Below, in pieces: positions 18,962-61,925 of a stretch of DNA of 64,000 nucleotides; within the stretch, counting starts at the first letter, position 1; each line of letters begins with the position of its first letter. The DNA lies in assembly GCA_963709345.1 (NCBI GenBank), contig CAVPVX010000010.1, positions 64,001 through 128,000 of the forward strand, read 5' to 3'. The position numbers were made by a program, and so were the translations under genes. The DNA comes from an uncultured Actinomycetes bacterium (GTDB taxonomy: Bacteria > Actinomycetota > Thermoleophilia > UBA2241). The notes beneath the pieces were generated by a model. That model was given only the letters and a program-made list of their open reading frames with translations, made no database searches and had not been told where the DNA came from.

Positions 18962-20413
18962 CTAGCCGCGCCGCGCGTGAGCGACGGCCTCGCCGTCCAC
19001 GCGGCACGCGGTCGCCAGCGCGTCCAGCCGGTCACTGCCGAGGTAGGGCTCGCTCGTGGCGCGCTCGGACAGGATGAGGTCGATCTTCTCGCACGCCGTG
19101 TCGAGCTCCGTCGTGCCTTCCTCGATCCATCTGTCGTAGGACAGCCGGTTCGAGACGGACGGCAGGTAGTGCTCGCCGGCGCGGATGCGCCGCGCCGTGT
19201 CCTTCTGGCCGAGGAAGCTCCCGCCCGGGCCGGCCGTGGCGATGGAGTCGCCCGCCAGCGTGGCCGGGGAGACCTCCACCGGGGCCATGAGACGCCGCAC
19301 CATGGCCGCGATCTCGTTGTCGATCACCGACTGCGGCAGGTACATGGTGTTGTGCGAGTCGATGAGGCCCCAGCCCGAGACGATGTCGGGGCCGGCGCTG
19401 CAGACGGTCGCCGTCTTCAGCGCCTTCTCGTAGCCGTTCTGGATCCCCGCGTGCTTGGCGTCGGTCGACAACCCGGGATTAAGCGTGGGGACGCCGAGGT
19501 AGTGCCCCACCTCGGTGGCCATGACGCCCATCAGGGCGCTCTCGACACATCCCAAGGAGAAGGTGGTGCGCAGCATGTCGAGCACGCCTGAACCGAAGCA
19601 GAAGACGAGTCTGGCTCCGGGCGCCGCGACCTGCAGCGCCGTGGCGATGCCGAGGAACTCGGCGAGACCCTGGGCGACGGTGCCCGCCAGCGTCACCGGC
19701 GACGTGGCGCCGGCGATCGTCATCGAGTACACCTCGATCGGTACGCCGTGGCCGGCCAGAGCGATGTGGATGTCGAGCGCCGCGCCGTCCACCTGGAGCG
19801 GCGAGGCGGCGGTGACGACGGTGGAGATGCGCGGGCGCTGCCGGAACCGCTCCAGGTCGCCGCCGAGCACCTTGCAGATCTCAAGGACCGCGTCGACCTC
19901 GTGCGGGCAGTCGACGAAGGTCACGTGCTTCCTGGTCTCGGTGAGCAGCGTGAAGTACTCGGTGAGCTCGCGCTGCTCCAGCGGGACGTCCGACGCGCTC
20001 ACCTGCGTCCACATGAGGTCGAGCTCTGAGAGCTCGTCGAGCACGGCGGTGGACTCGCGCACGTCCTGCAGCGTGCTGGCCCGGCGCATCCCTGTGCGGT
20101 GGTCCAGGGTCTTGGCGACGCAGCCGCTGGGCGCGAAGTGGAAGGGCTCGTGCTCACCGAGGACCACGTCGTCGGCCTCGGTGAGGCCGGCCATGAGGAC
20201 GGTGCGCGGGCACTGCCCGAGGGCCCACTCCACGAGCTCCCGGGGCAGGCGCGCGAGGCCTGTGGCCTCGTCCACGCGCGCGCCGCGCTCCTCGAGCCGG
20301 GGGAGTACGCGCGAGCCGTAGAAGCGCATGCCCACGTTGGCGAGAAGGTCCATCGCCTGGTCGGCGATGAGGCTCTTCTCGCCGTCGCTGAGCCGACTCG
20401 TGTTCGCCGTCAT
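18962..20413 (-). CDS. MttB-superfamily methyltransferase, non-pyrrolysine type
   Basis: SPL, AGATSPVTLAG, GLSTDAK (Ser at the Pyl-equivalent site), GPGGSFL; ends in TAG. Confidence 0.85.
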   Translation of the reverse strand: MTANTSRLSDGEKSLIADQAMDLLANVGMRFYGSRVLPRLEERGARVDEATGLARLPRELVEWALGQCPRTVLMAGLTEADDVVLGEHEPFHFAPSGCVAKTLDHRTGMRRASTLQDVRESTAVLDELSELDLMWTQVSASDVPLEQRELTEYFTLLTETRKHVTFVDCPHEVDAVLEICKVLGGDLERFRQRPRISTVVTAASPLQVDGAALDIHIALAGHGVPIEVYSMTIAGATSPVTLAGTVAQGLAEFLGIATALQVAAPGARLVFCFGSGVLDMLRTTFSLGCVESALMGVMATEVGHYLGVPTLNPGLSTDAKHAGIQNGYEKALKTATVCSAGPDIVSGWGLIDSHNTMYLPQSVIDNEIAAMVRRLMAPVEVSPATLAGDSIATAGPGGSFLGQKDTARRIRAGEHYLPSVSNRLSYDRWIEEGTTELDTACEKIDLILSERATSEPYLGSDRLDALATACRVDGEAVAHARRG

Positions 20414-20660
20414 CTCCGTTCACTCCTCTGGCCGAGACCTCTCGCCCAGTCGCGACCCGCGGCGGGCGTACTCCTGGCGCCGTTTCCAGCGGTCACCGCA
20501 GCACAATGGCACGCCGCTGGGGCACTGTCAACACGGGGCTTGCAGATGCGAGGCCCAACGGCCGTGAGGTGTTGCGTCTGAACGCGAAAGAGCCATAATG
20601 CATTGTGAATGTTGGCAGAGTGGCTGGAAACCTTCTCATACTGCTACGAAAGGGCAGGAG

Positions 20661-21227
20661 ATGATCAGAGCGGGGCAGGCGCCGTTCGGGTCGACCGAGA
20701 TGGACGACCTCGATCGTCGCATCATGAAGCTGCTCCGCCCCAATGCACGCCGCTCGTACGCCAGCATCGCGCGCGCCGTCGGGGTATCGGAGCCGACGGT
20801 CCGCAATCGCGTCGACCGCCTCATCAAGAGGGGCGCGATCCTCCCCATGGCCAGGGTCAACCCGGCAGCCATCGGCCTCCCTGTCGATGCCATGGTCGGC
20901 ATCCGCGTGAACCGTGGTTACGCGAAGGCGGTCGGGGCGCATCTCGCGGCCATGGAGAACGTCTCGTACGTCGGCTACACGACCGGTTCGTTCGACATCC
21001 TCATCGAGGCGCACCTGCCGGACAACGAGGGCCTCTACTCGTTCCTGAACGAGGATCTCGATCGGATCGAGGGCATAGCTCACACTGAGACCTGGCACAT
21101 TCTGCGCGCCGACAAGGTCAACTTCGAGTGGGACGGCGAGAACGTCGGCAGGGAGCCCCTCGCCGACGATGAGCCGGAGGCCGCGCCCGCCGATCCTTCG
21201 GCGGCGGCCGGGGAGGTCGCATCGTGA
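20661..21227 (+). CDS. Lrp/AsnC family transcriptional regulator
   Basis: MDDLDRRIMKLL...SYASIARAVGVSEPTVRNRVDRL; TTGSFD. Confidence 0.92.
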   Translation: MIRAGQAPFGSTEMDDLDRRIMKLLRPNARRSYASIARAVGVSEPTVRNRVDRLIKRGAILPMARVNPAAIGLPVDAMVGIRVNRGYAKAVGAHLAAMENVSYVGYTTGSFDILIEAHLPDNEGLYSFLNEDLDRIEGIAHTETWHILRADKVNFEWDGENVGREPLADDEPEAAPADPSAAAGEVAS

Positions 21228-22168
21228 GGGTGGGCTGCGTCGGCCTCGGTCACATCGGCCGTCACCTCGCGAGCAGCCTGGTACGCGCCGGCCACGGCGT
21301 CACCGTCCACGACCTGGATCCGGCGGCGGCTCAGGGCCTCGTCGAGGCCGGCGCCTCGTGGGCAGACTCGCCGGCCGCCGTAGCGCGCGCGTCCGAGTCG
21401 GTGATCACCTGCCTGCCCTCCATCGCCGCCGTCACGGAGGTCGTCGCCGGCGCCGGCGGCCTCGCCAGCGGATTCGCGCCCGGCGGCACGTGGATCGAGA
21501 TGAGCACCAACAGCCCGCACGAACTGGCGCGACTGGCGGCGCTTCTCGCCGAGAAGGGCGTCTCCACACTGGAGGCGCCGGTCACGGGCGGCGTCCACAA
21601 TGCCGAATCGGCCACCATCACCGTGCTCGTAGGTGGCGATGAGGACGTCTTCGCGAGACACGAGGACGTCTTCGCGGCGGTCGGAGGCAGGACCATTTAT
21701 GTCGGCGCCCTCGGCAAGGCCTCGAGCATCAAGGTCATCACGAACATGCTGGCCTTCATCCACATCGCCGCGTCCGCGGAGGCGTTCATGCTGGCCAAGC
21801 GCAGCGGCATCGACCTGCGTCTGGCCTGGGAGATCATCCGCGCCAGCTCGGGTTCCAGCTTCATCCTCGAGACGGAGAGCACGACCATCCTCGGCGGGAG
21901 CTACGACGTCGGCTTCTCCTTCGATCTCTGCCTCAAGGACATGGGCCTGGCGCTGGCGCTGGGCCGCGAGCTCGACGTGCCGCTCGACATCGCCGGCACC
22001 GTCGAGCAGTTGTTCGTGCGCGGTCGCGCCCGCTACGGAGGCGGCGCCGAGTACGCCATGGTCGCCAAGCTGCTCGAGGAGGCCTGCGGCACCGACCTGC
22101 GGGCGCCCGGCTTTCCGACCACGCTCAAGGAGTATCTGGCCACGATGCCGCGCGCCGAGGGCGCTTGA
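21224..22168 (+). CDS. NAD(P)-dependent oxidoreductase, 3-hydroxyisobutyrate dehydrogenase family (paralog of 17996-18916)
   Basis: GCVGLGHIG, EAPVTGG; IKVITNMLAFIH and GTDLRAPGFP shared with the paralog. Confidence 0.88.
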   Translation: MRVGCVGLGHIGRHLASSLVRAGHGVTVHDLDPAAAQGLVEAGASWADSPAAVARASESVITCLPSIAAVTEVVAGAGGLASGFAPGGTWIEMSTNSPHELARLAALLAEKGVSTLEAPVTGGVHNAESATITVLVGGDEDVFARHEDVFAAVGGRTIYVGALGKASSIKVITNMLAFIHIAASAEAFMLAKRSGIDLRLAWEIIRASSGSSFILETESTTILGGSYDVGFSFDLCLKDMGLALALGRELDVPLDIAGTVEQLFVRGRARYGGGAEYAMVAKLLEEACGTDLRAPGFPTTLKEYLATMPRAEGA

Positions 22169-22220
22169 CATCCTTGGCCGCGGGTTGTGTAGTGAGGGAT
22201 TAATTGACCGGTCAGTTAGC
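22165..22220 (+). promoter_or_regulatory. Putative mtbB promoter (TTGACA) with palindromic operator TAATTGACCGGTCAGTTA
   Basis: TTGACA at 22165-22170; near-perfect 18-bp palindrome at 22201-22218; the -10 element is weak. Confidence 0.6.
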
Positions 22221-22256
22221 ACGCCGAGAGTGTTCGGCGAGATGAGGAGGGACAGC

Positions 22257-23645
22257 GTGACGAACGAGGTCCGGGTGCCGACCCGCATGGGCGACGGCAC
22301 CTTCACGCGCATGACGCGCGACGAGATGCGTGCAGATCTCGAGGCGGGGTCGGAGGCGGCGGCCAAGAGAGCCAAGGTGCCGCCGCTCGAGCAGGACGAG
22401 ATCGATCACCTTCTGGACATTTACGCCTCGCCGGCGCGCTTCACCGGCGTTGACGTCGGCGATGAGATCGTCCTGAGCTGCGACGGCACCGGCATGAAGA
22501 CCCATGCCACCCGCATCCAGGATCTGCAGTCGTACGAGCAGTGGATGGGCGCCGACCTGCTGGAACTCTGCGTCGGCGACTACTCGCTCAAGGTCGTGCG
22601 CACCATCCTCGCCTACGAGGCCCAGTACATGCACGACGCGCAGCTGTGCACGATCGCGCCGCTGCAGTACGGCGTGATGCCCAACCTGGGCCTCTACTCC
22701 AAGCCGGACGGGCCCTGCGACAACTGGAACGAGCTGCTCCCGCTCGGCAAGATCGCCGAGGCGCGGGCGGCCGAAGAAGAAGCGGTCGAGATGGCCGTCG
22801 TCGACATGGTCAAGCTCGCCGACTCGCAGTGGGAGGCGGGCGCCGACGCGATCGACTGGGACACCACCGGCGCCTCCGGCGACCCGGAGTTCCTCGCTGC
22901 GCTCAGGGCGACGAAGATCATCCGCGAGAAGCACCCCGACATGGGCGTGCAGCTGGGCATGGCCGGCGAGTTCGTGCTCGGCATGCACGGCGAGCTCGAG
23001 TGGGGCGGCAAGCGTCTCGCCGGCCTGTGGCCCAAGGACCAGCTGCTGCTGGCCCAGGAGGCCGGCGCGACGATGTTCGGGCCGGTGGTCAACGTCAACA
23101 CCGGCAAGTCGCTGGTGTGGAACATCGCTCGTGCCATCGCGCTCATCAAGCCGTGCATGGAGGTCGCTGAGATCCCGGTGCACCCCAACGCCGGGATGGG
23201 CGTCGGCGCCGTGCCGATGTTCGTGCACCCGCTTGCCGACGCCGTCTGCCGCTCGGCCAAGTCGTTCGTCGACCTGCTGCACGTCGACGGGTTGTAGGTG
23301 GGTTCGGGCGATCCCCACGGGATGCACAACGCCCACGCGCAAGCCGCGAGCATCGGCGGTATACGAGCAGCCGGAGACCTGGTGGCTCGGATGCAGATGA
23401 CTCGGGGCATGCGCCTCAAAGAAGCAAAGCAGTACGTCGCCGACAAGCTCGGCGTCACGCCGTTCGACCTCTCCGACCCGGCCGTCATGACCGACATCCG
23501 TGCGGAGCTGGGCTTCGGCGGCATCCACAGCTACGCGATCAGCCAGCCGTACCTGGCCAACCAGATCGAGGCGAAGTTCAACATCGCTCGCGCGCTCGAC
23601 GTTCCCATCAACTGCGTAGAGCGCTTCAAGGAGCGCACCGCCTGA
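22257..23645 (+). CDS. mtbB: Dimethylamine:corrinoid methyltransferase with in-frame TAG (23295-23297) predicted to encode pyrrolysine; 462 aa
   Basis: AGGAGG RBS and GTG start. MtbB motifs lie on both sides of the TAG in one frame: RMGDG, MPNLGLY, DTTGASGD, GMAGEFVLGMHG, LAGLWP, then VDGL*VGSGDP and RAAGDLVARM. Context matches VDGI-O-IGVGDP of Methanosarcina MtbB as I recall it. Confidence 0.93.
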
Positions 23646-23661
23646 GGAGGTGGGGCAGACC

Positions 23662-24291
23662 ATGAACGACCAGCTCAAGCAGGCCATCATCGCCGGCGAC
23701 GCCGGCGTGGCCACCGCGCTCACCACGGCGCTCCTCGCCACCGGGGCCACGGCGCGGGAGATCCTCGACTCCGCCCTGCTCCCCGGCATGGAGGTCGTCG
23801 GCACGCGCATGCGTGACGGCGAGTGCTTCATCCCCGAGGTGCTGCTCTCCGCCCGCGTCATGCAGGCCTGCCTCGACCTGTTGCGCCCGCACATGGCCGC
23901 CGGCGACGAGGCCGGCGGCGGCGTGGTCGTGATCGGCACCGTCGAGGGCGACCTGCACGACATCGGCAAGAACCTCGTCGGCATGCTCCTGCAGGGGGCC
24001 GGCTTCACGGTCGTCAACCTCGGCACCGGGGTGACGGCGGCCGACTTCGTCGCCGCCGTCAAGGAGCACGCGCCGAAGATCATCGGCATGAGCGCCCTGC
24101 TCACGACCACCCTGCCGCACATGGCCGAGACGATCGCCGCGCTCAAGGCCGAGGGCCTGCGCGACTCCGTCAAGGTGATGGTCGGCGGCGCCCCGGTGAC
24201 CGCCGCCTACGCCGACGAGATCGGCGCCGACGGCTACGGCGCCAACGCCGGCATGGCGGTGGAGCGGGCGAAGGAGCTGGTGACGGGCTGA
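23662..24291 (+). CDS. Methyltransferase cognate corrinoid protein (MtbC/MttC-like)
   Basis: Cap domain FIPEVLLSA; B12 motif GDLHDIGKNLV; SALLTTT; VMVGGAP. Confidence 0.93.
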   Translation: MNDQLKQAIIAGDAGVATALTTALLATGATAREILDSALLPGMEVVGTRMRDGECFIPEVLLSARVMQACLDLLRPHMAAGDEAGGGVVVIGTVEGDLHDIGKNLVGMLLQGAGFTVVNLGTGVTAADFVAAVKEHAPKIIGMSALLTTTLPHMAETIAALKAEGLRDSVKVMVGGAPVTAAYADEIGADGYGANAGMAVERAKELVTG

Positions 24292-24328
24292 CGGGAAGCG
24301 GGCGGCCGCGACGTCGCCTGCCGAGGAG

Positions 24329-24377
24329 GGTTGCCGGCCGGCGAGACAGTGACCGCCCGCGGAGCCGGCCGGCAACC
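24329..24377. repeat. Perfect 14-bp inverted repeat between the corrinoid gene and mttB
   Basis: GGTTGCCGGCCGGC (24329-24342) pairs with GCCGGCCGGCAACC (24364-24377). Confidence 0.8.
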
Positions 24378-24442
24378 GTTCTCGAAGCCACACGGACCGT
24401 CGACGGACGACCGGCGGTCAGGAGAGTGCAAGGGAGGTCGAG

Positions 24443-25912
24443 ATGAGACGCAATCCGCGCGCGGGAGCGCGCAAGAGTGGCGGCTTCAGGCTCGAGGTGT
24501 TCACCGACGAAGAGCTGCGCGAGATCCACCTCTCGACGCTCGAGGTGCTCTCGCGCACGGGCGTCTTCGTCGAGGATGACGAAGCGCTCGACATCTTCGA
24601 GAGGGCCGGCGCCGACGTCGACCGCGAGAAGAGCGTGGTGCGTCTTCCGGGTCACCTCGTCGACGACGCGATCCGCTCGGCGCCCTCGACGGTGGTCATG
24701 TGCGGCCGCGACCCGTCCAGGGACGTGGTGCTCGAGGACGGCCGCGTCGGATTCACCAACTTCGGCGAGGGCATCCAGGTCGTCGACCCGTACACCGGTG
24801 AGCTCCACGAGAGCCGCAAGCAGGACGTTGCCGACTGCACGAGGATCATCGATGCCCTGCCCGAGATCGACGTCGTGGAGCGGCCGCTCGGCGCCCACGA
24901 CGTGCCGCCGGACACAGCGTCGCTGCATAACGCCGAGGCGATCTTCAGCAACACCACGAAGCACGCCACCATCGGTCCCCTCTCGGGCTTCTGCGCCCGC
25001 AAGATGATCGACATGGCGGCGACGATCGTCGGGGGGCGGGACCAGCTGCGCCGCCGCCCGATCCTCTCGTTCCTCACCTGCCCGGTCAGCCCGCTCAAGC
25101 TGGTGAAGGACGCGTGCGAGATCATCATCGAGGGTGCCCGCGCCGGTATCCCGGTCAACGTCCTCTCCATGGCGATGGCCGGCGGTTCGTCGCCGGTCAG
25201 CCTGGCCGGCACGCTGGTCACGCACAACGCCGAGGTGCTCGCCGGCATCACGCTCGCGCAGCTCACTGAACGCGGAACGCCGGTGATCTACGGATCGTCG
25301 ACGACCGCCATGGACCTGCGCTTCGCCAGCGCCTCGGTGGGCAGCCCCGAGTGCGCGATGATCGGCGCCGGTGTGGCCTGCCTCGCCCGCTTCTACCTGC
25401 TGCCCAGCTGGGTGGCTGGTGCGTAGGGCGACTCCAAAGTGGCGGACGCCCAATCCGGCCATGAGAAGACGATCACCAGCCTGCTGCCGGCGTTGGCAGG
25501 GGCCAACCTGATCTACGGGCTGGGGATGCTGGAATCGGGCGTCACCATCGATTACGCGCAACTCGTCATGGACGCGGAGTTCGCGCGCATGGTCAAGTAC
25601 TGCGTGCCGGGGATCCCGGTCACCGACGAGACGCTGTCGGTGGACGTGATCGCCGAGGTAGGGCCGTTCCGCGACTTTCTCTCGCACGACGACACCTACA
25701 AAGGCATGCGCGGGCAGTCGCAGTCGAAGTTCATCGACCGGAAGGTCCGCGAGGAGTGGGCCGCTGCCGGGTCGACGACGATCTACGACCGCTCGCTGGC
25801 CGAGGCCCGGCGGATCCTCGAGACGCACACGCCGGATCCACTGCCGGACGAGGTCGCCGTGGAGCTCAGGTCGATCATCGTTGCTGCGGAGGCTGAGCTC
25901 GGCGTCAAGTGA
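24443..25912 (+). CDS. mttB: Trimethylamine:corrinoid methyltransferase with in-frame TAG (25424-25426) predicted to encode pyrrolysine; 489 aa
   Basis: GGAGG RBS; FTNFGEG, CPVSPL, MAMAGGSSPVSLAGTLVTHNAEVLAG, YGSSTT, PSWVAGA*GDSKVADAQSGHEKT, GANLIYGLGMLE, all in one frame. Confidence 0.93.
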
Positions 25913-25965
25913 CGACCGGCTGGATCCGTCGTTCCCGGGTCCGGACCGCCGTCGCTTCCGGCTTC

Positions 25966-26009
25966 GGGGCGCGACCGGCCTGCTGTCGTGTGCAGGCTGG
26001 TCGCGCCCC
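25966..26009 (+). terminator. 18-bp GC-rich hairpin after mttB (probable terminator without U-tract)
   Basis: GGGGCGCGACCGGCCTGC, 8-nt loop, GCAGGCTGGTCGCGCCCC (one G-U pair). Confidence 0.65.
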
Positions 26010-26202
26010 TCGCCGCGACCGCACCCGGACGTCTGGGCACACGCGATGATGTTCCCGAGGTAGCCCCGAGCCTTCCCGCTGGGGTACTGGCGTCGGCGAC
26101 GGTTACCTCCGGCACGCTCTCAAGATGCCCTCCCCCGGGTGACGACTCTCGCGCTTCGGCGCCATAGGCTTCGGGCGATGAATGGAGTCGACAGGAGGGA
26201 TC

Positions 26203-27708
26203 ATGGAACGCTCTGCTTTCACGGCCGGGAGACTGAAGCGGCTCGCGGCCGGAGCTGTGGCGGTCGGAGGGGCCGCCGTGGTGACCGGACTGATCATGCC
26301 GCGCGGGCCCGTGACCACGCTCGACGCGATCGTGACTCTCGCGGCGGGACTCGGGATCGGCCTCGTTGCCGGCTACGCGTGGCGCTCCCGCTGGGCGCTG
26401 CTCGCCTCGCCCGCGCTGTTCGCCCTGGTCTACGAGCTCGTGCGGCTTGGCGAGAGCGGCCCGACCGTCGACCGGATCACCCTGGCCTCCACCTACGGCA
26501 TCGTCGCCTTCGTGAGCGGGCGAGGCGTCCACGGCGCTTTCCTGCTGCTGCCGATGGTCCTCGGCAGCGGCGTCGGCGTGGCTGTTGCGCGCCGAGCGGC
26601 GGCTCCGGCGGCGCGTCCGCTCGGCGTGGGCGGCGTGGCGCGGCGCGTGGCCGTCGCCGCCGCCGCAGCAGCGCTTCTGGCGCTGACGGCTGGCCTCGCC
26701 GTGCCGGCCCGCACCGAGCCGATCCGTGACGTTGCCGGGGCCGTCGTCCCCGGCAGCATCGCCGAGCTCACCGCCATCGACGTCAACGGGACGGAGCAGG
26801 CGCTCATGGTCCGCGGCCGTCGCCAGGATGCGCCGGTACTCCTCTACTTGGCCGGTGGCCCCGGCGGCAGCGAGATCGGGTCCATGCGCAAGCTGAGCGA
26901 GAGCCTCGAGGAGCACTTCGTGGTCGCGACGTGGGACCAGCCGGGGTCGGGCAAATCCCTGTCGAGCTATCGCGACGACATGACGCTTGACGACATGGTC
27001 GACGATACGCTCGCCGTCACGGGCTACCTCCGCGAGCGCTTCGGTCGGCAGAAGGTCTACCTCGCCGGCAATTCGTGGGGGACCATCCTCGGCGTGCTCG
27101 CCGTTCAGAAGCGCCCCGAGTTCTATCACGCCTACGTCGGCACCGGGCAGATGGTCGATCCGGTCGCGACGGACCGGATGTTCTACGCGGACACCCTGGC
27201 GTGGGCCGAGCGGACCGGGCAGCGCAACCTCGTGGCGACGCTTCGCGAGAACGGTGAACCACCGTACGACGAACTCTGGAAGTACGAGCCGGCGCTCGCG
27301 CACGAGCACGACTGGAACCCGTACGCGATGGCGCCCGGGTTCCAGGAGAAGGGCGAGATGCCGGGCAACATCTTCGTCGCCGAGTACACGCTGCTCGAGA
27401 AGCTGCGGCTCATGGGCGGGTTCCTCGACACGTTCTCGGTGCTGTACCCGCAGCTTGCGGCCGCCGGCATCGACTTCCGGACGGCGGTCCCGACGCTGGA
27501 GGTGCCTGTCTACCTGGTCCAGGGCGCGCACGAGGCGCGAGGCCGGGCCGGGCTGGCTCGGGAGTGGTTCGAGCAGCTAGACGCGCCGAGCAAGCGCCTC
27601 ATCGTGTTCGAGCGTTCGGGCCACAAGCCGTCGTTCGAAGAACCTGCGCGCTTCACGGCGGTGATGACCGGCCTCGTCCTCGGTGGCGCGCACGCCGTGC
27701 GGCGCTGA
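26203..27708 (+). CDS. Membrane-anchored alpha/beta hydrolase (proline iminopeptidase-like)
   Basis: Several N-terminal TM segments; AGGPGG, WDQPGSGKS, nucleophile GNSWG, SGH. Confidence 0.85.
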   Translation: MERSAFTAGRLKRLAAGAVAVGGAAVVTGLIMPRGPVTTLDAIVTLAAGLGIGLVAGYAWRSRWALLASPALFALVYELVRLGESGPTVDRITLASTYGIVAFVSGRGVHGAFLLLPMVLGSGVGVAVARRAAAPAARPLGVGGVARRVAVAAAAAALLALTAGLAVPARTEPIRDVAGAVVPGSIAELTAIDVNGTEQALMVRGRRQDAPVLLYLAGGPGGSEIGSMRKLSESLEEHFVVATWDQPGSGKSLSSYRDDMTLDDMVDDTLAVTGYLRERFGRQKVYLAGNSWGTILGVLAVQKRPEFYHAYVGTGQMVDPVATDRMFYADTLAWAERTGQRNLVATLRENGEPPYDELWKYEPALAHEHDWNPYAMAPGFQEKGEMPGNIFVAEYTLLEKLRLMGGFLDTFSVLYPQLAAAGIDFRTAVPTLEVPVYLVQGAHEARGRAGLAREWFEQLDAPSKRLIVFERSGHKPSFEEPARFTAVMTGLVLGGAHAVRR

Positions 27709-27891
27709 CGTCTTGCCGGCGAGGGGCACGAAAGCGCCAGAGGCGCACGCCCCTCGCCGAACTTAAGTCGATACGAACTGCTGTGAAGAGCAAGATCGAC
27801 GTGCACTGGTCCTTGGAGCGGTGTAGTGTTCTGTGGAGCGCCTGCCGGTCTCGGCGAGCGCGTCGCCTAGAAACGCCGTCCAGGAGTGACG

Positions 27892-29331
27892 ATGCCAGAT
27901 AGCAGCATGGAGATCGGCGCCGGCCGGGTGAGCTTCCTCACCGAGGAGCAGAAGCAGCGCATCTACGAGGCCGCGCTTGGGATCCTGTCCGAGATCGGCA
28001 TGGTGGTGCTTCACGAGGAGGGTGAGGCCGTCATGCTCGCCGGCGACTGTGTCAAGGACGACGCCGGCCTCATCCACGTGTCCGCTGAGCTCGTAGAGCA
28101 GGCGCGCTCCACGGTCCCGGCCAGCTTCATGGTCTACGACCGCGCCGGCGAGCCGGCGATGGATCTGGGCGGCCGGCGCGCGTACTTTGGGAACGGTTCG
28201 GACGTGATGCATCTGCTTGACCTCGAGACTGGCGAGCGCCGCCTGGGCAAGCTCGAGGACGTCGGCGAGGCGGCGCGCCTCTGCGACGCCCTGCCCGAGA
28301 TCGACTTCGTCATGTCGGGCGCCTACCCCGACGGCATGGTCGCCGAGGAGGCGTACCCCAAGCAGTTCCGCGCCATGATCGAGGCGACGACCAAGCCACT
28401 CGTCATGACGGCCGGGGGCGTCGAGACCGTCGAGCCCATGTGGCGCATGGCCTGCGAGGTCCGCGGCGGCGCCGACGCGCTGCGCGACAAGCCGTACTTC
28501 GTCATGTACAACCAGCCCGTCAGCCCTCTCAAGCACCCCTTCGAGACCGTCGAGAAGCTGCTGTTCTGCGCCGACAAGGGCATCCCGTCCACGTACTGCC
28601 CGTCGCCGGTGGCCGGAGGGACCGCCCCCATCACCACCGCCGGCCAGATCACACTTGGCATCGCCGAGGCGCTCTTCGGCCTGGTCATGCACCAACTCCG
28701 TGTGCCCGGGGCCCCGTTCGTCATCGGCCAGGGCCCCAACACGCTCGACATGGCGACCTCTCAGTCGGCCTACAACTCGCCCGAGTTCATCCGCGCGTAC
28801 GCGTGCGAGGTCGAGATGGCCAAGTGGCTCGACCTGCCCAACTGGGGCTTCAGCGGTCACACCGACGCGCAGGTGGTGGACGCTCAGGCCGGCATGGAGG
28901 CCGACGAGATCACCAAGCTCTCCATGCAGCTCGGCGCCAACCTCAACCACGACGTCGGCTACATGGACTTCGGGCTCTCCGGGTCGCTCGCCGAGGTCGT
29001 CCTGGTCGCCGAATTCATCTCGCGCAACCGGCAGTTGCTCGAGGAGATCGAGGTCAGCGACGAGACGCTGGCCGTGGACGTGCTCAAGGCGGTCGGCCCC
29101 GGCGGCGACTTCCTCGGCCAGCGGCACACGCGGCGCCACCTGCGCAGCACCCAGTGGCGCGGGAAGCTGCTCAATCGCGCCAGCTACGACCGCTGGGCGG
29201 CGAACGGTGCCACGGACGCCACGGAGAAGGCGCGTTTGCGGGCGCTCGAGCTACTGGCAACGCACGAGGTGCCGGCGCTGCCGGACGGCCTCTGCGCACG
29301 GCTCGACGCAGTCATGGGCGGTCTCTCATGA
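27892..29331 (+). CDS. MttB-superfamily methyltransferase, non-pyrrolysine type
   Basis: PVSPLKH, AGGTAPIT, SGHTDAQVVDAQAG (His at the Pyl-equivalent site), VGPGGDFL. Confidence 0.88.
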   Translation: MPDSSMEIGAGRVSFLTEEQKQRIYEAALGILSEIGMVVLHEEGEAVMLAGDCVKDDAGLIHVSAELVEQARSTVPASFMVYDRAGEPAMDLGGRRAYFGNGSDVMHLLDLETGERRLGKLEDVGEAARLCDALPEIDFVMSGAYPDGMVAEEAYPKQFRAMIEATTKPLVMTAGGVETVEPMWRMACEVRGGADALRDKPYFVMYNQPVSPLKHPFETVEKLLFCADKGIPSTYCPSPVAGGTAPITTAGQITLGIAEALFGLVMHQLRVPGAPFVIGQGPNTLDMATSQSAYNSPEFIRAYACEVEMAKWLDLPNWGFSGHTDAQVVDAQAGMEADEITKLSMQLGANLNHDVGYMDFGLSGSLAEVVLVAEFISRNRQLLEEIEVSDETLAVDVLKAVGPGGDFLGQRHTRRHLRSTQWRGKLLNRASYDRWAANGATDATEKARLRALELLATHEVPALPDGLCARLDAVMGGLS

Positions 29332-32385: not shown

Positions 32386-33216
32386 TCAGAACTCCGGCGG
32401 GAGTTCCTTCATCTGGGCTGCTGTGAAGACGGGCCCGTCCTTGCAGACGTACACGGGCCCGATGTTGCAGCGGCCGCACTTGCCGAGTCCGCACTTCATG
32501 CGGTTCTCGAGCGTGGTGAAGATGGCCTCGTCGGCGAAGCCCAGCTTCTCCAGCACCGGAAGCGTGAGCTTGACGACGATCGGCGGGCCGCAGAGCACGG
32601 CGACGGCGTTGTCGGCCTTCGGCGCCGTCTTCTCGACGACCGGCGTGACGTAGCCCACCTCGCCGGCCCAGTCCACGGTCTCGCCGCCGGGATCGACGGT
32701 GCTTACCATCGTGATGTCGGAGCGCGAGCTCCACTCTTCCAGCTCGCGCTTGTACACGAGGTCCTCGACCGAACGGGCGCCGTACACGATGGTCACGTCG
32801 CCGAACTCGTCGCGGCGGTCGAGCACGTTCCAGATGACGCAGCGTACCGGCGCCAGGCCGATGCCGCCGGCGACGAACACCACGTCCTTGCCCTTCCAGT
32901 CGTCGACCGGGAACCAGTTGCCGTAGGGACCGCGGAAGCCGACGGTGTCCCCGCGGTTCACTTCGCGAAGTGCCGACGTGACCTTGCCGACCGCCTTGAA
33001 GCTGCACTCGATGTAGCCCTCTCGCGTCGGCGCGCTGGCGATGCAGAAGGTGCTCTCGCCGGCGCCGAAGACGCTGTACTCGCCGAACTGGCCGGCCTTG
33101 AAGGCGAAGCTCTCTCGCAGTGCCTCGTCCTGGAACTCGAGGCGGAGGGTGCGAGTGTCGGGCGTCTCGTCGACAAGCTCCGTGACGGTGGTGAGGAGCG
33201 GCTGATAGATGTTCAC
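32386..33216 (-). CDS. flxA: FlxA/AsrB-like FAD/NAD-binding oxidoreductase subunit
   Basis: RGPYGN, AGGIGLAP, CGPP, MKCGLGKCGRC, CKDGPVF. Confidence 0.85.
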   Translation of the reverse strand: MNIYQPLLTTVTELVDETPDTRTLRLEFQDEALRESFAFKAGQFGEYSVFGAGESTFCIASAPTREGYIECSFKAVGKVTSALREVNRGDTVGFRGPYGNWFPVDDWKGKDVVFVAGGIGLAPVRCVIWNVLDRRDEFGDVTIVYGARSVEDLVYKRELEEWSSRSDITMVSTVDPGGETVDWAGEVGYVTPVVEKTAPKADNAVAVLCGPPIVVKLTLPVLEKLGFADEAIFTTLENRMKCGLGKCGRCNIGPVYVCKDGPVFTAAQMKELPPEF

Positions 33217-34442
33217 GAGGTCACCGGCTCGGGGGCGTCGGGGGCGGGCTCGGCGGCGGCGGCTTCGTCCGGCCGCCGCGCCGCGATGTCGATCTCCTGC
33301 AGGATCTCGACGATGTCCTGGCCGGCGTGGCAGACGCGTGTGCAGCGGCCACAGCCGGTGCAGAGCACCTCCCCGAACTTGAGCGGGTAGATCGAGTACT
33401 TGTGGTTGATCCGCTGGCGGTAGCGCACGTGCTGGTCGTCACGCGGGTTGTGTCCGCTGGCGTGCAGGGTGAAGGTCGGCGCCTGGCAAGTGTCCCAGCA
33501 GCGTCGCCGGGTGCCGCGGCCGACGCCCTCCTCCTCGTCGACGATGTCGAAGCAGTGACACGTCGGGCAGACCGAGGCGCAGGCGCCGCAGCCGTTACAG
33601 CGGATCGCGAGGGTGGCGAGGAGGGGATCTTCGAAGTGGCTGTCGATCCAGTCGCGGACCGAGGCGGCGTCGATCTCGAGGTTGGCGGCGACCCGGGCGC
33701 GGGCGGCGGCACGCTCGTCCTCGGCCTGACGCCCGCGAGTGTCCGCTGGGACGTCGTCGCTGAGGCGCGCCGCGTGCGCAGCCGCGAAGGCACGGCCCTT
33801 GTCGGTCGTCACCTCGAGCACATACCCGCCGTCGACCGGCGTGAGCAGGCCGTCGGCGCCCTTGGTGTCGTCGGGCGCCGTGTCGACCGCGGTGCAGAAG
33901 CAGCTCTCGTCGATGACGGGGCAGGCAAGGTTGATGATCGTCGTCGCTGCGCGGCGGCCGTTCCAGAGCTCGTCCCTGTAGTCCCAGTTCATGACCTGGT
34001 CGACGACGGCGAGGGCGGCGCTGTCACAGGGCTTCGCCGCCAGGACGACCCGCGGAGCGAACTCGATGGGGACGTTCTCCACTGCGATTGTGGTGCCCTT
34101 CTGTTTCCAGTGGCAAAGCGCTTCGTGCTCGGGGAGGAAGTACCCCTTGAGCGAGAGCTGCGGCAGGCCGCGGGAGAGGTCGAGCTCGTCGGCGCCGGCC
34201 AGCGGGCGGTAGTCGATGTCCACGGCGGCGACGCCGGGGAGGGTGCACGCCGACGCGGCCATGGCCGACGGAGACTGACACACATCGGTGGCGAGAGGCG
34301 CGATCACTTCCGTGCCCGCACCCAGCAGGTCGCCGACGAGGCTGCGCAGGTCGGGCTCGCTCAGGAAGAAGCGCTTGGGCGGCCCGTTCGAGGCGGTCGC
34401 GTTGCCGCGTGCGCCGGCCGTCGTGTCCGTCGCGTCGGTCAC
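33213..34442 (-). CDS. flxB: FlxB/AsrA-like 4Fe-4S dicluster subunit
   Basis: PCD, CFC, CNGCGACASVCPTCHCF, CTGCGRCTRVC. Confidence 0.8.
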   Translation of the reverse strand: MTDATDTTAGARGNATASNGPPKRFFLSEPDLRSLVGDLLGAGTEVIAPLATDVCQSPSAMAASACTLPGVAAVDIDYRPLAGADELDLSRGLPQLSLKGYFLPEHEALCHWKQKGTTIAVENVPIEFAPRVVLAAKPCDSAALAVVDQVMNWDYRDELWNGRRAATTIINLACPVIDESCFCTAVDTAPDDTKGADGLLTPVDGGYVLEVTTDKGRAFAAAHAARLSDDVPADTRGRQAEDERAAARARVAANLEIDAASVRDWIDSHFEDPLLATLAIRCNGCGACASVCPTCHCFDIVDEEEGVGRGTRRRCWDTCQAPTFTLHASGHNPRDDQHVRYRQRINHKYSIYPLKFGEVLCTGCGRCTRVCHAGQDIVEILQEIDIAARRPDEAAAAEPAPDAPEPVTS

Positions 34443-35350: not shown

Positions 35351-35841
35351 GGCGTCACCTCGGCGCTCGCCTGAGCGGGTGCGCCGGACGAAACGGCTTC
35401 GCCGTCGTCGGGCGCCAGCGCCCGATACGCCTCGAAGGGGCCGAGCTCGCGCACGCTTGCGACGGCTTCGTTCACGACGTCCTTCCACTTCGCGCCCTCG
35501 CTCGCCGAGACCCAGCTGAAGGTCATGCGTCGCGGGTCGACGCCGACGAAGTCCATGATGTCGTGGAACACGGCGAACCGCCGCCGGGCGTGGTAGTTGC
35601 CCGAGGTGTAGTGGCAGTCGGCCGGGTGGCAGCCGCTGACGATCACGCCGTCGGCGCCGCGCTCGAACGCCTTGATGATGAACAGCGGGTCGATGCGGCC
35701 CGTGCAGGGCAGGCGGATGATGCGCACGTTGCTCGCCATGTGCAGGCGGCTGGTCCCGGCCAGGTCGGCTCCGGTGTAGGTGCACCAGTTGCAGACGAAG
35801 GCGGTGATGCGCGGTTCGAAGTCGTCGTGCGTCTCGCTCAT
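35347..35841 (-). CDS. flxD: MvhD/FlxD [2Fe-2S] subunit
   Basis: FVCNWCTYTGAD, PCTGR, GCHPADCHY, WVSASEG. Confidence 0.9.
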   Translation of the reverse strand: MSETHDDFEPRITAFVCNWCTYTGADLAGTSRLHMASNVRIIRLPCTGRIDPLFIIKAFERGADGVIVSGCHPADCHYTSGNYHARRRFAVFHDIMDFVGVDPRRMTFSWVSASEGAKWKDVVNEAVASVRELGPFEAYRALAPDDGEAVSSGAPAQASAEVTP

Positions 35842-35842
35842 C

Positions 35843-39530: not shown

Positions 39531-39667
39531 CGTCAGTGATCGATCCCTTCTGGTGGGGCGGGATGGCCTTCGGCCCCGCCGCATCCTTCGTCGAGACTGG
39601 AGAGCAAGTATACATCTTGACTACAGTGTAGAGGCACACCCTAAAGCAGGCAACTCCGCACCTCTAT

Positions 39668-60308: not shown

Positions 60309-61334
60309 TCAGTACTGGGCCTCGTGACCGACCTCGATCATGGCCCGGATGTTTTCGATCGGAGTATGGAGGCTCAGATCGCAGCCACTCGCGAGCACGA
60401 AGCCCCCACCCGCCCAGCCCTTCGACACGCACGACCTGGCCGCTTCCCTCACCGTCTCGGGAGAGCCGTCGAGAAGGAGCCCAACGGGATCCACGTTACC
60501 GAGCAGGCAGACGGAGGCGCCGATGGCCTCCTTCACGACGGCCGTATCCACCGACGCGTCGAAGCTGAAAGCCGTCGCACCCGTGTCCGCTGCGAGCGTG
60601 AGGATCTTGGCGGTCTTGCCACACACGTGCAGGATCGACGGCAAGTCCACCTTCTGGAGCGCCTCGACGACAGTCCTCGTGGACGGAGCTGCGTACTCCG
60701 CGTAGTGTCGTGGAGATATCAGGTCGCCGGACGCGGTGGGGTCGCTGAGGACGAACCCGTGGACCCCGAGGTCCGCGTACAGCTGCAGATGCCGCACGAT
60801 GACCTCGGTCGAGAACTCGATCAAGCGGTGGACCTCGTCGGCGTGTTCGATCAGATCCGTCATCAGGTCGGTCATCCCGCGCAGGTGACCCGCCAGCGTG
60901 AAGGGCAGAGGGAGCGAGGCGTAGCAGAACACTTCATCGCCAAGCTCCTCCAGGAGCGCCTCGGCAGCGATCAGAGACGACTGCACGCGGGAGCTTGCGC
61001 TCGTGTCCACGAGGACGAGGTCCGCCACCTCATCAAGTGAATGAAGCGCAGGCTCGATGACACTGGGGCTCCCAACCTCGGTGATCCGGGAAGTGCAGCC
61101 AAGCAGGTCGACGAAGGCGAACCAATCCCAGACGATCTCGATCGCGTCAAAGGGACAGGCTGCCTGTGCATTGACGATGGCTGCGGCTGCCCTCTCAGGA
61201 TGAGCCAACGACTCGGGGGTCGACAAGCCGAAGGCGTCGAGAGCCCAGTAGCCTTGGAAGGGAGGCGCGACGGGCACCCTGTCGGGCGGGTCGAGCAGTC
61301 GAAGAGCCTTGGTGAACCTCTCCCTCCCGGTCAT
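60309..61334 (-). CDS. UroD-superfamily MtaA/CmuA-like methylcobamide methyltransferase
   Basis: DRVPV, PFTLA, SDPTASGDLISP, Zn ligands LHVCG and SGCD, TPIENI. Confidence 0.8.
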   Translation of the reverse strand: MTGRERFTKALRLLDPPDRVPVAPPFQGYWALDAFGLSTPESLAHPERAAAAIVNAQAACPFDAIEIVWDWFAFVDLLGCTSRITEVGSPSVIEPALHSLDEVADLVLVDTSASSRVQSSLIAAEALLEELGDEVFCYASLPLPFTLAGHLRGMTDLMTDLIEHADEVHRLIEFSTEVIVRHLQLYADLGVHGFVLSDPTASGDLISPRHYAEYAAPSTRTVVEALQKVDLPSILHVCGKTAKILTLAADTGATAFSFDASVDTAVVKEAIGASVCLLGNVDPVGLLLDGSPETVREAARSCVSKGWAGGGFVLASGCDLSLHTPIENIRAMIEVGHEAQY

Positions 61335-61925
61335 CTGCGTCCCTTCTGCGTCTGAGGCTTCATCGGGCGTCCTCTCCGCAGCTGCGGCATGAACGAGGCG
61401 CCCCGCGTGCGGTGCCCGTTCGCCGAGACCTCGCTGCGGACGATGGCGAGTGCAGTGTATCCGTACGTACTCGGCCTTGGCGGTGGCACCCCGCGCCGTC
61501 CTCGACCGCGAGTTCGACGCGCCGTGCGAGTGGAACATCCAGGCGCGTGCACTCGTCTCCCTGGGGCGTACAAGGGTCTGTGGACGAGCGCGACCACTGG
61601 CCGGGCGTTCCGCAGCGAGTGTCGGCCGTCGGTGACTACGTGGGTGCGGGCCCAAGCGCTCTCGCGTGCGTCCAACGCTCGGCGGGCGAGATGCTGAGTG
61701 GCAACGCGCGCGACGATTCCCCCGAGGTCACCGCACCTCTCGCGGCTCCCGGCATGCGACTGTGGGATGACGCAAGTGCTGTGACGATTGTGGGAGCCCG
61801 CGGCGCCGGCGCCGCGTTCGGCGGCGTGTGTCGAGCGATCTCACTCCGCACGCACGGCACTTGCTCTTGCACAGCAGGATGACTCATAGTCGCAAGACGC
61901 TGCGACGAGGAGGATCGAACGTGAC

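Follow-up and report, generated by a model that had tools for sequence, protein, structure and literature searches.

This locus raises the question of whether an uncultured actinobacterium reads UAG as pyrrolysine (Pyl), the 22nd amino acid, within its methylamine methyltransferase genes. The window, that is, the whole stretch of 64,000 nucleotides analysed here, carries three consecutive genes on one strand, and each of the two methyltransferase genes contains one in-frame TAG. The relevant features are as follows.

22257..23645, plus strand: mtbB, Pyl-type dimethylamine:corrinoid methyltransferase gene, 462 aa with the TAG read through
23295..23297, plus strand: in-frame TAG of mtbB, codon 347, predicted to be read as pyrrolysine; positions 1-3 of the Rfam PYLIS_2 match
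23650..24291, plus strand: gene for a corrinoid (B12) methyl-carrier protein of the MtbC/MttC/MtgC type, 4 nt 3' of mtbB
24443..25912, plus strand: mttB, Pyl-type trimethylamine:corrinoid methyltransferase gene, 489 aa with the TAG read through
25424..25426, plus strand: in-frame TAG of mttB, codon 328, predicted to be read as pyrrolysine

The mtbB frame starts with GTG, 6 nt downstream of GAGGAGG, and is translated into 346 residues, the TAG (context VDGL*VGSGDP) and 115 further residues before TGA. That of mttB gives 327 residues, the TAG (VAGA*GDSK) and 161 residues before TGA. The original prediction, made from the letters of the window, had one TAG in each methyltransferase (at 23295 and 25424) and products of 462 and 489 aa; its coordinates, frames and contexts are exact on translation, and both products pass the NCBI equivalog cut-offs. 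The MtbB read-through product matches PF09505 with 539.9 bits over profile positions 4-462 of 463, and its residues 9-460 match positions 7-465 of 466 of TIGR02368 with 398.7 bits (cut-off 369.1). The MttB product matches PF06253 with 297.2 bits over positions 30-499 of 500, and TIGR02369 with 740.2 bits (cut-off 525), where two flanking non-Pyl paralogues reach only 314-315. Thus, mtbB and mttB are full-length members of Pyl-type families. The corrinoid protein has both B12-binding domains (PF02607 and PF02310) and the DxHxxG motif in the form DLHDIG, and matches the MtgC, MtbC and pyl_corrinoid models, each below cut-off. The three genes are regarded as a putative operon purely from their common strand and the gaps of 4 and 151 nt; a scan of the cluster for promoters and terminators found none.

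The TAGs of both genes lie in the catalytic Pyl column. In the case of mttB, the product aligns with the solved MttB of Methanosarcina barkeri (7xcl/7xcm) at E about 1e-119 over residues 3-483, and the TAG placeholder falls on X (Pyl) of 7xcl_A in 'VAGSXSDAKV' and on K of 7xcm_A, just at the catalytic site where it had been predicted. No solved structure was found for MtbB. The Methanomethylophilaceae MtbB gene call P0301 (354 aa, 40% identity) ends at query residue 346, one before the TAG, and this residue is the common end of N-terminal fragments (353-356 aa) from five distant MtbB clusters. The original prediction likened the site to that of Methanosarcina MtbB, which overstates the comparison; the Pyl column of mtbB was placed here by way of the Methanomethylophilaceae fragments and family models. 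In Methanosarcina MtbB, Pyl is at codon 356.

The window belongs to a metagenome-type assembly of 3.1 Mb in 11 contigs, which is 98% complete with 1.45% estimated contamination. Ten full-length mtbB and seven Pyl-type mttB make 17 apparently intact Pyl genes in this single genome, a modest addition to prior reports. The TAG occupies one alignment column in 10/10 mtbB paralogues, whose mutual identity is 40-66%, and in all eight Pyl-type mttB copies aligned (the seven intact ones and one from a broken gene). Near-full-length non-Pyl MttB paralogues number 26, and the four that were aligned have A, S or H in the Pyl column. No Pyl-type mtmB was found in the genome: both MtmB-family matches are without an internal stop, and the one aligned, on contig C2, carries Ile where Pyl would stand.

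The TAG of mtbB is also maintained in relatives. Orthologues of the window copy occur in 18 other genomes of the genus with 76-91% identity and one TAG each, and the next MtbB paralogues reach only 60-64%, which marks the Pyl-mtbB copies as old and separately maintained. Compared with the 18 orthologues, the 110 codons immediately 3' of the TAG show 124/152/534 differences at codon positions 1/2/3, and the codon changes there comprise 419 synonymous and 244 non-synonymous ones; the corresponding figures for the stretch of 115 codons 5' of the TAG are 160/153/603, with 460 synonymous and 291 non-synonymous changes. The stretch 3' of the TAG evolves as coding sequence. Among the matches listed, 49/49 relatives of the window MtbB, from 26 of 31 genomes of the genus, have exactly one TAG. 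PF09505 matches are found in 24/24 other genus genomes, and all 150 among those listed have one TAG (one has also a TGA), with 96 more matches beyond those. The expected conservation in relatives is thus seen in every genus match listed, and together with the shared column of the paralogues it goes well beyond chance. Relatives of MtbB in the database are mostly 346-aa products ending at the TAG, which bears out the claim that gene callers split such genes.

The genome with the mtbB-mttB cluster holds a complete bacterial-type pyrrolysine system. The pyl genes are on contig C11 and the operon is on contig C10. PylSc scores 318 bits against TIGR02367 (cut-off 178) and PylSn 122.7 bits against TIGR03912 (cut-off 51); PylB (427 bits, cut-off 348), PylC (279.7, cut-off 248) and PylD (212.5, cut-off 150) are encoded by adjacent genes. 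A tRNA-Pyl with anticodon CUA (ARAGORN 'cta') lies at L009:9992-10064, 70 nt 3' of pylD; an Rfam search of this locus gave no match at the gathering score. The order is pylB-pylC-pylD-pylT, then pylSn, a radical-SAM gene, a corrinoid-protein gene and pylSc, so that pylT, pylSn, pylSc and pylBCD, the set to be searched for according to the original prediction, are all present. Almost all PylSc relatives with 67-81% identity are titled as Thermoleophilia or Actinomycetota, and the host, anticipated as probably actinobacterial, has its named relatives in the class Thermoleophilia. PylSc above cut-off is found in 37/201 genomes of the class: 32/35 other genomes of the window's family, 5/35 of a second family and 0/130 of ten other families. 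Within the genus, 17 of the 20 other genomes sampled have it. No public sequencing run was found to contain half of the window's sampled words; such sequence as could be matched derived from short contigs of relatives. Because of the TAG columns, the complete pyl set and the conservation in relatives, pyrrolysine decoding in this organism is well supported at the sequence level. We consider it very probable that mtbB, the corrinoid protein gene and mttB form a working cluster in this uncultured Thermoleophilia (Actinomycetota) bacterium, with UAG read as pyrrolysine once in each methyltransferase.

UAG is also an ordinary stop in the same genome. Among crude high-GC3 ORFs, about a fifth are ended by TAG (388/1802 or 383/1819 in two counts), and no excess of back-up stops was found after TAG-ended ORFs as compared with TGA-ended ones (median 59 vs 53 codons, Mann-Whitney p = 0.13). 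Reading UAG as Pyl must therefore need release-factor competition, conditional pyl expression or local mRNA context. As a separate observation, a lineage-specific nonsense TAG was seen in an unrelated DUF438/hemerythrin gene in 1/29 genomes, a pattern opposite to that of mtbB and mttB.

The mRNA context downstream of each UAG contains the following features.

23295..23394, plus strand: PYLIS_2 region (Rfam RF02509), 100 nt from the mtbB UAG, 65.3 bits (gathering score 36), E 1.1e-14, model positions 1-100 of 100
23364..23389, plus strand: hairpin in the PYLIS_2 region, columns 70-95 of alignment A2, within codons for R-A-A-G-D-L-V-A-R
25424..25523, plus strand: PYLIS_3 region (Rfam RF02510), 100 nt from the mttB UAG, 71.5 bits (gathering score 38), E 8.6e-14, model positions 1-100

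Since these models span coding sequence, the matches partly reflect protein conservation. The predicted fold of 120 nt from the mtbB UAG is unusual (z = -5.41; 0/200 shuffles as good) and that after the mttB UAG weakly so (z = -2.33; 3/200). In mtbB, the wobble-wobble pairs 72-93, 75-90 and 78-87 of the hairpin rank 1st, 2nd and 6th in covariation among 632 wobble column pairs, and the observed covariation is reached by 0/500 shuffles (35 sequences of one genus). The 5' helices of the region are weak. The hairpin, found independently here, is the 3' hairpin (model 73-92) of Rfam PYLIS_2; consensus structures of PYLIS_2 for mtbB and PYLIS_3 for mttB were presented by Have et al. (2013, PMC3639795). 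Among four distant mtbB sequences, 10/11 pairs can form in Paradesulfitobacterium, 8/11 in Sporomusa ovata and only 5/11 in each of two archaeal copies of Ca. Hecatella, in which the hairpin is not conserved. Wobble covariation thus favours the 3' hairpin as supporting evidence confined to Thermoleophilia, which is also a modest addition. It suggests selection on this hairpin of mtbB, which may contribute to Pyl reading.

Several other readings of these data have to be weighed. If the TAGs were ordinary nonsense mutations or assembly errors, the genes would be dead, and broken copies do exist in this genome: an mtbB in four frame pieces (C11:176097-177473) and two Pyl-type mttB copies in pieces, one at C1:451257-452664 with a TAA and the other at C8:11655-13060. 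The clear nonsense TAG in the DUF438/hemerythrin gene shows that such events happen in this lineage; however, it is confined to a single genome, while the TAG column of mtbB and mttB is constant among the intact paralogues and, for mtbB, in all genus matches listed, coincides in mttB with the Pyl of the solved enzyme, and is followed in mtbB by a coding-type substitution pattern. The conservation refutes this reading in practice, as originally argued, and leaves it a negligible probability. Equally improbable is the thought that the pyl and methyltransferase genes came from different organisms and were binned together. The pyl cluster and the operon do lie on two of 11 contigs in an assembly with some estimated contamination, but G+C is 69-70% in all contigs, the pyl contig itself carries a Pyl-type mtbB and mttB (C11:180096-182925), and both PylSc and PF09505 recur through the genus; we give it practically no weight.

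More substance attaches to the view that UAG mostly terminates, yielding fragments of 346 and 327 aa and perhaps separately started C-terminal pieces, with the full-length Pyl protein minor or condition-dependent. TAG often serves as a stop here, without a back-up-stop signature, GTG-started ORFs begin just 3' of the TAGs (23298-23645 and 25439-25912), and a model in which termination competes with Pyl insertion is discussed by Have et al. (PMC3639795). Nevertheless, both pieces would lack the catalytic residue, a complete system for Pyl synthesis and charging is kept across nearly all of the family, and the TAG persists in seventeen genes that appear intact, so this is very improbable as the main outcome. 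In another reading, Pyl decoding is real, and the window MtbB and several of the nine other copies use an amine different from dimethylamine as their substrate, a diversification like that in the non-Pyl MttB superfamily, whose members have an established link to quaternary amines (cited in PMC10805028). The wide divergence of the ten Pyl-mtbB copies, the separately maintained orthologue group of the window copy and the many non-Pyl MttB paralogues agree with this, as does the TIGR02368 score of the window MtbB, the lowest among eight copies tested (398.7 vs 407.7-516.9). Against it, all eight pass the curated dimethylamine equivalog cut-off, and the Pyl-type mttB beside the window mtbB encodes an enzyme that yields dimethylamine. 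We know of no MtbB-family enzyme with a substrate other than dimethylamine. Dimethylamine as the substrate of the window MtbB is a predicted annotation, and the reading with another amine is unlikely.

If the preferred reading, pyrrolysine decoding in a methylamine-demethylating cluster, is followed through, the pathway can be drawn by analogy with Methanosarcina and Pyl-using bacteria. Pyrrolysine would be made from lysine by PylBCD, and PylSn/PylSc would charge tRNA-Pyl(CUA), by which the two UAGs are read. MttB would demethylate trimethylamine to dimethylamine, with the Co(I) form of the corrinoid protein encoded between mtbB and mttB as methyl acceptor, and MtbB would likewise methylate this Co(I) protein from dimethylamine. 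A methylcorrinoid methyltransferase would pass the methyl onward, probably to tetrahydrofolate, and a RamA-type activase (C9:7202-7918) would re-reduce oxidised corrinoid. The genome contains the RamA-type domain, four URO-D-family genes (one of them in the window), a pterin-binding protein and MetF. The following genes of the window surround or may complement the cluster.

18962..20413, minus strand: upstream non-Pyl MttB-superfamily paralogue, TIGR02369 314.3 bits (cut-off 525), without internal stop and with Ser in the Pyl column
20598..21227, plus strand: Lrp/AsnC-type transcriptional regulator gene; NCBIfam AsnC/Lrp/LysM-type matches, all below cut-offs
21224..22168, plus strand: HIBADH/2-hydroxy-3-oxopropionate reductase-like dehydrogenase gene, about 190 bits, below equivalog cut-offs; overlaps the stop of the Lrp/AsnC-type gene by 4 nt
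27886..29331, plus strand: downstream non-Pyl MttB-superfamily paralogue, TIGR02369 315.1 bits, below cut-off, with His in the Pyl column
60309..61655, minus strand: MtaA/CmuA-family (URO-D fold) methyltransferase gene, TIGR01463 212.3 bits (cut-off 235.4), PF01208 214.6 bits

The MtaA/CmuA-family gene, 34 kb from the operon and with its domain beginning at residue 107 of the longest ORF, is a candidate for the methylcorrinoid:acceptor methyltransferase, as is the pterin-binding protein on contig C3. The Lrp/AsnC-type gene 5' of mtbB is a candidate regulator, with a presumed tie to the operon. No acetyl-CoA synthase was found in the genome, so oxidation or assimilation of the methyl groups is more likely than their conversion into acetate. 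A broader picture may be offered tentatively, and we hold it to be rather doubtful as a whole: Pyl use would be ancient and common to a whole Thermoleophilia family; a genome with at least 17 apparently intact Pyl genes would exceed the 8 of the largest bacterial set in the papers cited here; its ten deeply diverged and separately conserved Pyl-MtbB would have split into enzymes for different secondary or tertiary amines beyond dimethylamine; and a selected PYLIS_2 hairpin would help UAG to mean Pyl there while it ends about a fifth of other genes.

The locus is a well-documented case in which the gene, the machinery and the lineage of the 22nd amino acid come together in one near-complete genome, for soil and sediment Actinomycetota, a group usually omitted from accounts of methylamine turnover. 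Bacteria that demethylate trimethylamine and dimethylamine compete with methylotrophic methanogens for methane precursors. Since standard gene callers halve every such gene, this capacity is under-counted in metagenome surveys. With 10 mtbB, 7 Pyl-type mttB and 26 near-full-length non-Pyl MttB genes in 3.1 Mb, the lineage suits the question of whether the three methylamines are the only substrates of Pyl enzymes, and also that of how UAG stays ambiguous without harm.

Pyl-type mtbB and mttB in Actinomycetota are already in the literature and are not a new discovery; many other Thermoleophilia genomes analysed here have them as well. An earlier description in the host's lineage had been foreseen in the original prediction as a point against novelty alone, and this is the case. 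The original prediction had called a bacterial Pyl-MtbB unusual in this background, which overstated its rarity in view of prior reports (PMC1976440; PMC9630628; PMC10805028): a 2022 study reported two Actinobacteria with PylRS (PMC9630628), and in a thawing permafrost mire Ellenbogen et al. (2023, PMC10805028) found Pyl-type mttB and mtbB expressed by MAGs of Actinobacteriota. Those MAGs share with the window the phylum and the two gene families, recognised there by truncation at the amber codon; the available parts of that report are silent on gene counts, on pyl machinery and on recoding signals. One PylSc relative here (L043, 67% identity) has a 'palsa' isolate name. A bacterial Pyl-MtbB was described as early as 2007 in the Delta1 symbiont of Olavius algarvensis (Zhang and Gladyshev, PMC1976440). 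As far as that report describes it, the symbiont likewise has split pylSn/pylSc, pylBCD, pylT and several Pyl-type MtbB and MttB, without MtmB, but it belongs to the deltaproteobacteria and has 8 Pyl genes (6 MtbB and 2 MttB), then called the bacterial maximum, against 17 apparently intact ones here.

Methanogen MtbB of the Methanomethylophilaceae cluster P0132/P0301 resembles the window copy in that the P0301 call stops just before the window TAG position, whereas the window's genome has 10 paralogues. M. barkeri MttB with MttC (PDB 7XCL, 7XCM, 7XCN) shares the position of the Pyl residue and a corrinoid protein gene alongside; unlike it, the window's host is bacterial with 69% G+C, has one corrinoid gene for both mtbB and mttB, and probably uses tetrahydrofolate instead of coenzyme M as the downstream acceptor. 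Finally, the split PylS of Bacillota (Sporomusa, Desulfosporosinus and Desulfitobacteriaceae) is also encoded by separate pylSn and pylSc and includes the nearest PylSc relatives outside the class (52-56% identity), whereas in the present genome the radical-SAM and corrinoid genes stand between pylSn and pylSc, which are on opposite strands, and pylT follows pylD.

The putative operon of the window consists of the following genes, of which mtbB and mttB were read by frame translation:

22257–23645, plus strand: mtbB; 346 residues, TAG at 23295–23297 (codon 347), 115 residues, TGA
23650–24291, plus strand: corrinoid-protein gene, 4 nt after mtbB; 213 aa, both B12-binding domains, DLHDIG motif
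24443–25912, plus strand: mttB; 327 residues, TAG at 25424–25426 (codon 328), 161 residues, TGA

The original prediction was that both TAGs encode pyrrolysine (Pyl), and its coordinates, codon numbers, contexts and lengths for the two genes were all correct. With the TAG read through, MtbB has 462 aa and MttB 489 aa. The former aligns with PF09505 (Dimeth_Pyl) over its full length (539.9 bits) and scores 398.7 bits against TIGR02368 (cut-off 369.1), and the latter reaches 740.2 bits against TIGR02369 (trimeth_pyl; cut-off 525). The product of the corrinoid-protein gene is akin to the MtgC, MtbC and pyl_corrinoid models, with scores below all their cut-offs. The start codon of mtbB is GTG, with GAGGAGG 6 nt upstream, and a promoter and terminator scan over 20400–26300 found none.

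Both TAGs are located at known Pyl sites. When MttB was aligned to the solved M. barkeri MttB, the TAG fell on the Pyl residue, X of 7xcl_A and K of 7xcm_A, in the context PSYVAGSXSDAKV (M. barkeri) and PSWVAGA-GDSKV (window), as had been claimed. A PDB sequence search with MtbB found no solved relative. When 1.84 billion representatives were searched exhaustively, N-terminal MtbB fragments of 353–356 aa were found in five distant clusters (39–47% identity), each ending at query residue 346, and one cluster includes gene calls named Candidatus Methanomethylophilaceae. The MtbB-family protein P0301 from this cluster (354 aa, 40% identical) ends with '...VDGV' opposite '...VDGL' at residues 343–346 of the window MtbB; thus, gene callers stop at the same site in a known Pyl-using methanogen lineage. 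The Rfam models PYLIS_2 (mtbB) and PYLIS_3 (mttB) have the UAG as their first position, and they match 23295–23394 (65.3 bits, gathering 36) and 25424–25523 (71.5 bits, gathering 38), respectively, each over all 100 model positions. The fragment ends in the Methanomethylophilaceae cluster and the four others, together with the start of PYLIS_2 at the TAG, bear out the predicted site in mtbB. The databases also include P0129, a full-length MtbB-family protein from a metagenome (463 aa, 36% identical to the window MtbB) without a stop; it has Trp opposite the Pyl position (VDMLWATTGDP), and thus non-Pyl homologues of MtbB exist.

Judging from established knowledge of these families, PylBCD, PylS and tRNA-Pyl would act in Pyl decoding. 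The corresponding genes are found on contig C11 of the same genome, partly covered by the excerpted locus L009:

C11: pylB, pylC and pylD, consecutive; 427 (cut-off 348), 279.7 (248) and 212.5 (150) bits
C11, 70 nt after pylD: tRNA-Pyl with anticodon CUA, called by ARAGORN
C11, after tRNA-Pyl: pylSn; 122.7 bits (cut-off 51)
L009:11520–12398, minus strand, opposite to pylSn: radical-SAM gene between pylSn and pylSc
L009:12682–13317, plus strand: second methylamine-type corrinoid protein gene, between pylSn and pylSc
C11, after this corrinoid gene, opposite strand: pylSc; 318 bits (cut-off 178)

All of pylT, pylSn, pylSc, pylB, pylC and pylD are therefore present, and the synthetase, with PylSn and PylSc apart, is of the split type found in bacteria. 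Rfam at gathering score gave no match on the pyl locus, the ARAGORN call of tRNA-Pyl notwithstanding. The genome comprises 3.11 Mb in 11 contigs (69.5% G+C, 98% complete, 1.45% contamination). C11 bears its own Pyl-type mttB–mtbB pair, which argues against the pyl genes being a binning artefact.

Use of the TAG is consistent across the genome and the genus. Ten full-length mtbB matches carry exactly one TAG each, beside a frameshifted copy and a fragment at a contig edge, and seven mttB genes above the Pyl equivalog cut-off carry one TAG each, beside two broken copies; 26 near-full-length non-Pyl MttB paralogues have no stops. The ten MtbB paralogues are 40–66% identical (median 56%) with the TAG in a single column and the motif DG[LY]-O-[VI]G-GD, in which O is Pyl, and the seven further paralogues compared with TIGR02368 are all above its cut-off (407.7–516.9 bits), the window copy scoring lowest. 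Among the aligned Pyl-type MttB copies, 8/8 have the TAG in one column, where four non-Pyl paralogues show A, S or H. PF09505 matches occur in 24/24 other species genomes of the genus, and all 150 listed (96 more exist) carry one TAG, one of them also a TGA. With the window MtbB as query, 25/30 other genus genomes gave a match at E <= 1e-180; each of the 49 matches listed has one TAG, and orthologues with 76–91% identity exist in 18 genomes. The TAG is thus kept in relatives. Compared with these 18 orthologues, the first 110 codons after the mtbB TAG differ at first, second and third positions 124, 152 and 534 times (419 synonymous and 244 non-synonymous codon changes), and the 115 codons before it 160, 153 and 603 times (460 and 291). 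This substitution pattern indicates that the stretch past the TAG is kept protein-coding in that frame.

In public sequencing runs, the best share of the window's sampled words was 0.23, and the contigs that match the window at >=85% likeness, taken from two runs of DNA and two of RNA libraries, are short and come from relatives. Among them, one from an RNA library (162 nt, 3 differences) spans the mttB TAG, and among the 40 differences listed against relatives' contigs (369 more exist), none falls on either TAG. The broken copies, mtbB at C11:176097–177473 and Pyl-type mttB at C1:451257–452664 and C8:11655–13060, run through several frames, one with a TAA, and are either frameshifted pseudogenes or assembly errors. 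The densest Pyl-gene cluster of the genome extends over 17 kb (C7:334984–351860) and contains five Pyl-type mtbB genes, one Pyl-type mttB and non-Pyl MttB paralogues.

UAG also serves as an ordinary stop: about 21% of crude high-GC3 ORFs terminate at TAG (388/1802 and 383/1819 in two counts); back-up stops after TAG-ended ordinary genes are not enriched compared with TGA genes. A composition screen for further Pyl proteins, which missed the window's own mtbB and mttB, picked out 58 in-frame TAGs flanked on either side by coding-like sequence. Known mtbB or mttB genes account for ten of these. Of the other 48, just two, the hemerythrin gene and the ModA-like fragment listed below, have the TAG within a Pfam domain; most of the remainder look like adjacent genes sharing one frame, and 11 are without a Pfam match. 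Loci with an in-frame TAG outside the two families include the following:

C7:522783–523781 (L127:1501–2499), plus strand: DUF1858-DUF438-hemerythrin-PAS gene; TAG at L127:2116–2118, inside the hemerythrin domain
C4:251210–251818 (L102), minus strand: ModA-like solute-binding fragment covering only 66–226 of the PF13531 profile; TAG at codon 107, inside the domain
Window 61926–63317, plus strand: arginase-family gene ending in TAG at 62916–62918

The TAG of the hemerythrin gene is not conserved in the genus: the best matches in 28 other genomes lack a stop, and Glu occupies the position in three aligned orthologues. The GAG-to-TAG change is specific to this genome and the gene is otherwise intact; pseudogene formation, an error of assembly or tolerated read-through could each account for it. 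The ModA-like fragment is probably a decayed gene. Past the TAG of the arginase-family gene, the frame is open for 132 more codons of coding-like composition, in which no Pfam family was found at E <= 1e-8.

The mRNA downstream of the mtbB UAG is predicted to be structured. The folding z of the 120 nt from the UAG is -5.41 (0/200 shuffles as good), against -1.26 and -0.43 for two control stretches upstream. With 40 shuffles each, mean z after the UAG is -2.6 vs -0.6 elsewhere in the ten mtbB paralogues, and -1.2 vs -0.45 in the seven mttB genes. When 35 distinct post-UAG mtbB stretches, paralogues and orthologues of one genus, were aligned, the RNAalifold consensus retained a hairpin at columns 55–108; the observed covariation of the full predicted structure was reached by 0/500 shuffles, and slid controls pair far less. 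The core stem (columns 70–95, window 23364–23389) corresponds to the codons for R-A-A-G-D-L-V-A-R, whose first and second positions are self-complementary, and its three wobble-wobble pairs covary. Pair 75–90 (AU, CG, GC, UG, UA and GU; paired in 31/35), pair 72–93 (30/35) and pair 78–87 (35/35) rank 1st, 2nd and 6th of all 632 wobble-wobble column pairs. This stem is the 3′ hairpin of PYLIS_2, and a consensus mtbB structure was proposed earlier by Have et al. (2013; PMC3639795). Of four distant mtbB genes, those of Paradesulfitobacterium and Sporomusa ovata form 10/11 and 8/11 hairpin pairs, respectively, but the two from Ca. Hecatella form only 5/11 each. The stem starts 69 nt after the U of the UAG and is thus too distant to touch the ribosome decoding it.

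By analogy with their families, MttB and MtbB would methylate a Co(I) corrinoid protein. Expected helpers present in the genome are one RamA-type activase domain (C9:7202–7918), four URO-D-family genes including an MtaA/CmuA-family gene at window 60309–61655, a pterin-binding protein and MetF. Acetyl-CoA synthase (PF03598) was not found in this 98% complete genome, which has about 45 corrinoid-dependent methyltransferase genes, so that oxidation or assimilation via tetrahydrofolate, and not conversion into acetate, would probably be the fate of the methyl groups. No Pyl-type mtmB was found in the genome, and neither of its MtmB-family (PF05369) matches has an internal stop:

C2:391900–393261 (L011:1501–2862), minus strand: full-length MtmB-family gene
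C7:776285–777439, plus strand: MtmB-family gene at a contig end

The product of the C2 gene, which adjoins an mtbB and a non-Pyl MttB gene, aligns end to end with M. barkeri MtmB (1l2q) with Ile at the Pyl position, and by sequence it is a non-Pyl homologue. The encoded pathway stops at monomethylamine, unless this paralogue or another enzyme takes over. In the window, genes on the minus strand at 32386–39584 encode an HdrA-like flavoprotein with Fe-S clusters, MvhD/FlpD, a CCG-domain HdrB-like protein, a ferredoxin-like protein and an NAD-binding/DHODB-type subunit. Such a gene run, close to the methyltransferase genes, suggests redox metabolism of an electron-bifurcating or anaerobic kind.

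About 40 MAG records hold PylSc relatives with 67–81% identity, almost all titled Thermoleophilia or Actinomycetota (by deposited title, the exceptions are one Deltaproteobacteria and one Zixibacteria), in agreement with the predicted actinobacterial host. The next relatives are from Bacillota and Desulfobulbus (49–56%) and one archaeon (45%). PylSc scored above the cut-off in 37/201 genomes sampled from the class: 32/35 other genomes of its own family, 5/35 of a second family and 0/130 of ten others. Pyrrolysine is thus a family-level trait, not a single-genome oddity. In 59 PylSc-flank loci, no mtbB was found by motif.

The finding is real and was correctly read, but this kind of finding, taken as unusual in the original prediction, is already known from Actinobacteriota MAGs of a permafrost mire expressing Pyl-type mttB and mtbB (Ellenbogen et al., 2023; PMC10805028) and from two Actinobacteria which Guo et al. 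(2022; PMC9630628) count among 81 bacterial PylRS genomes. The sole paper matching both 'Thermoleophilia' and 'pyrrolysine' in our literature search, as far as the indexed text goes, was a soil survey (PMC9516835); PMC10654671 and PMC8382752 have pyrrolysine in reference lists only. In the text covered by the search, no paper was found stating the Pyl inventory or the family-level spread of PylSc, which the supplements of PMC10805028 may list. What is added here is the family-level distribution of PylSc in Thermoleophilia, the synonymous-site covariation for the PYLIS_2 hairpin, and a complete inventory of 17 apparently intact Pyl genes in one genome, compared with 8 in the record-holder of 2007 according to Zhang and Gladyshev (PMC1976440).
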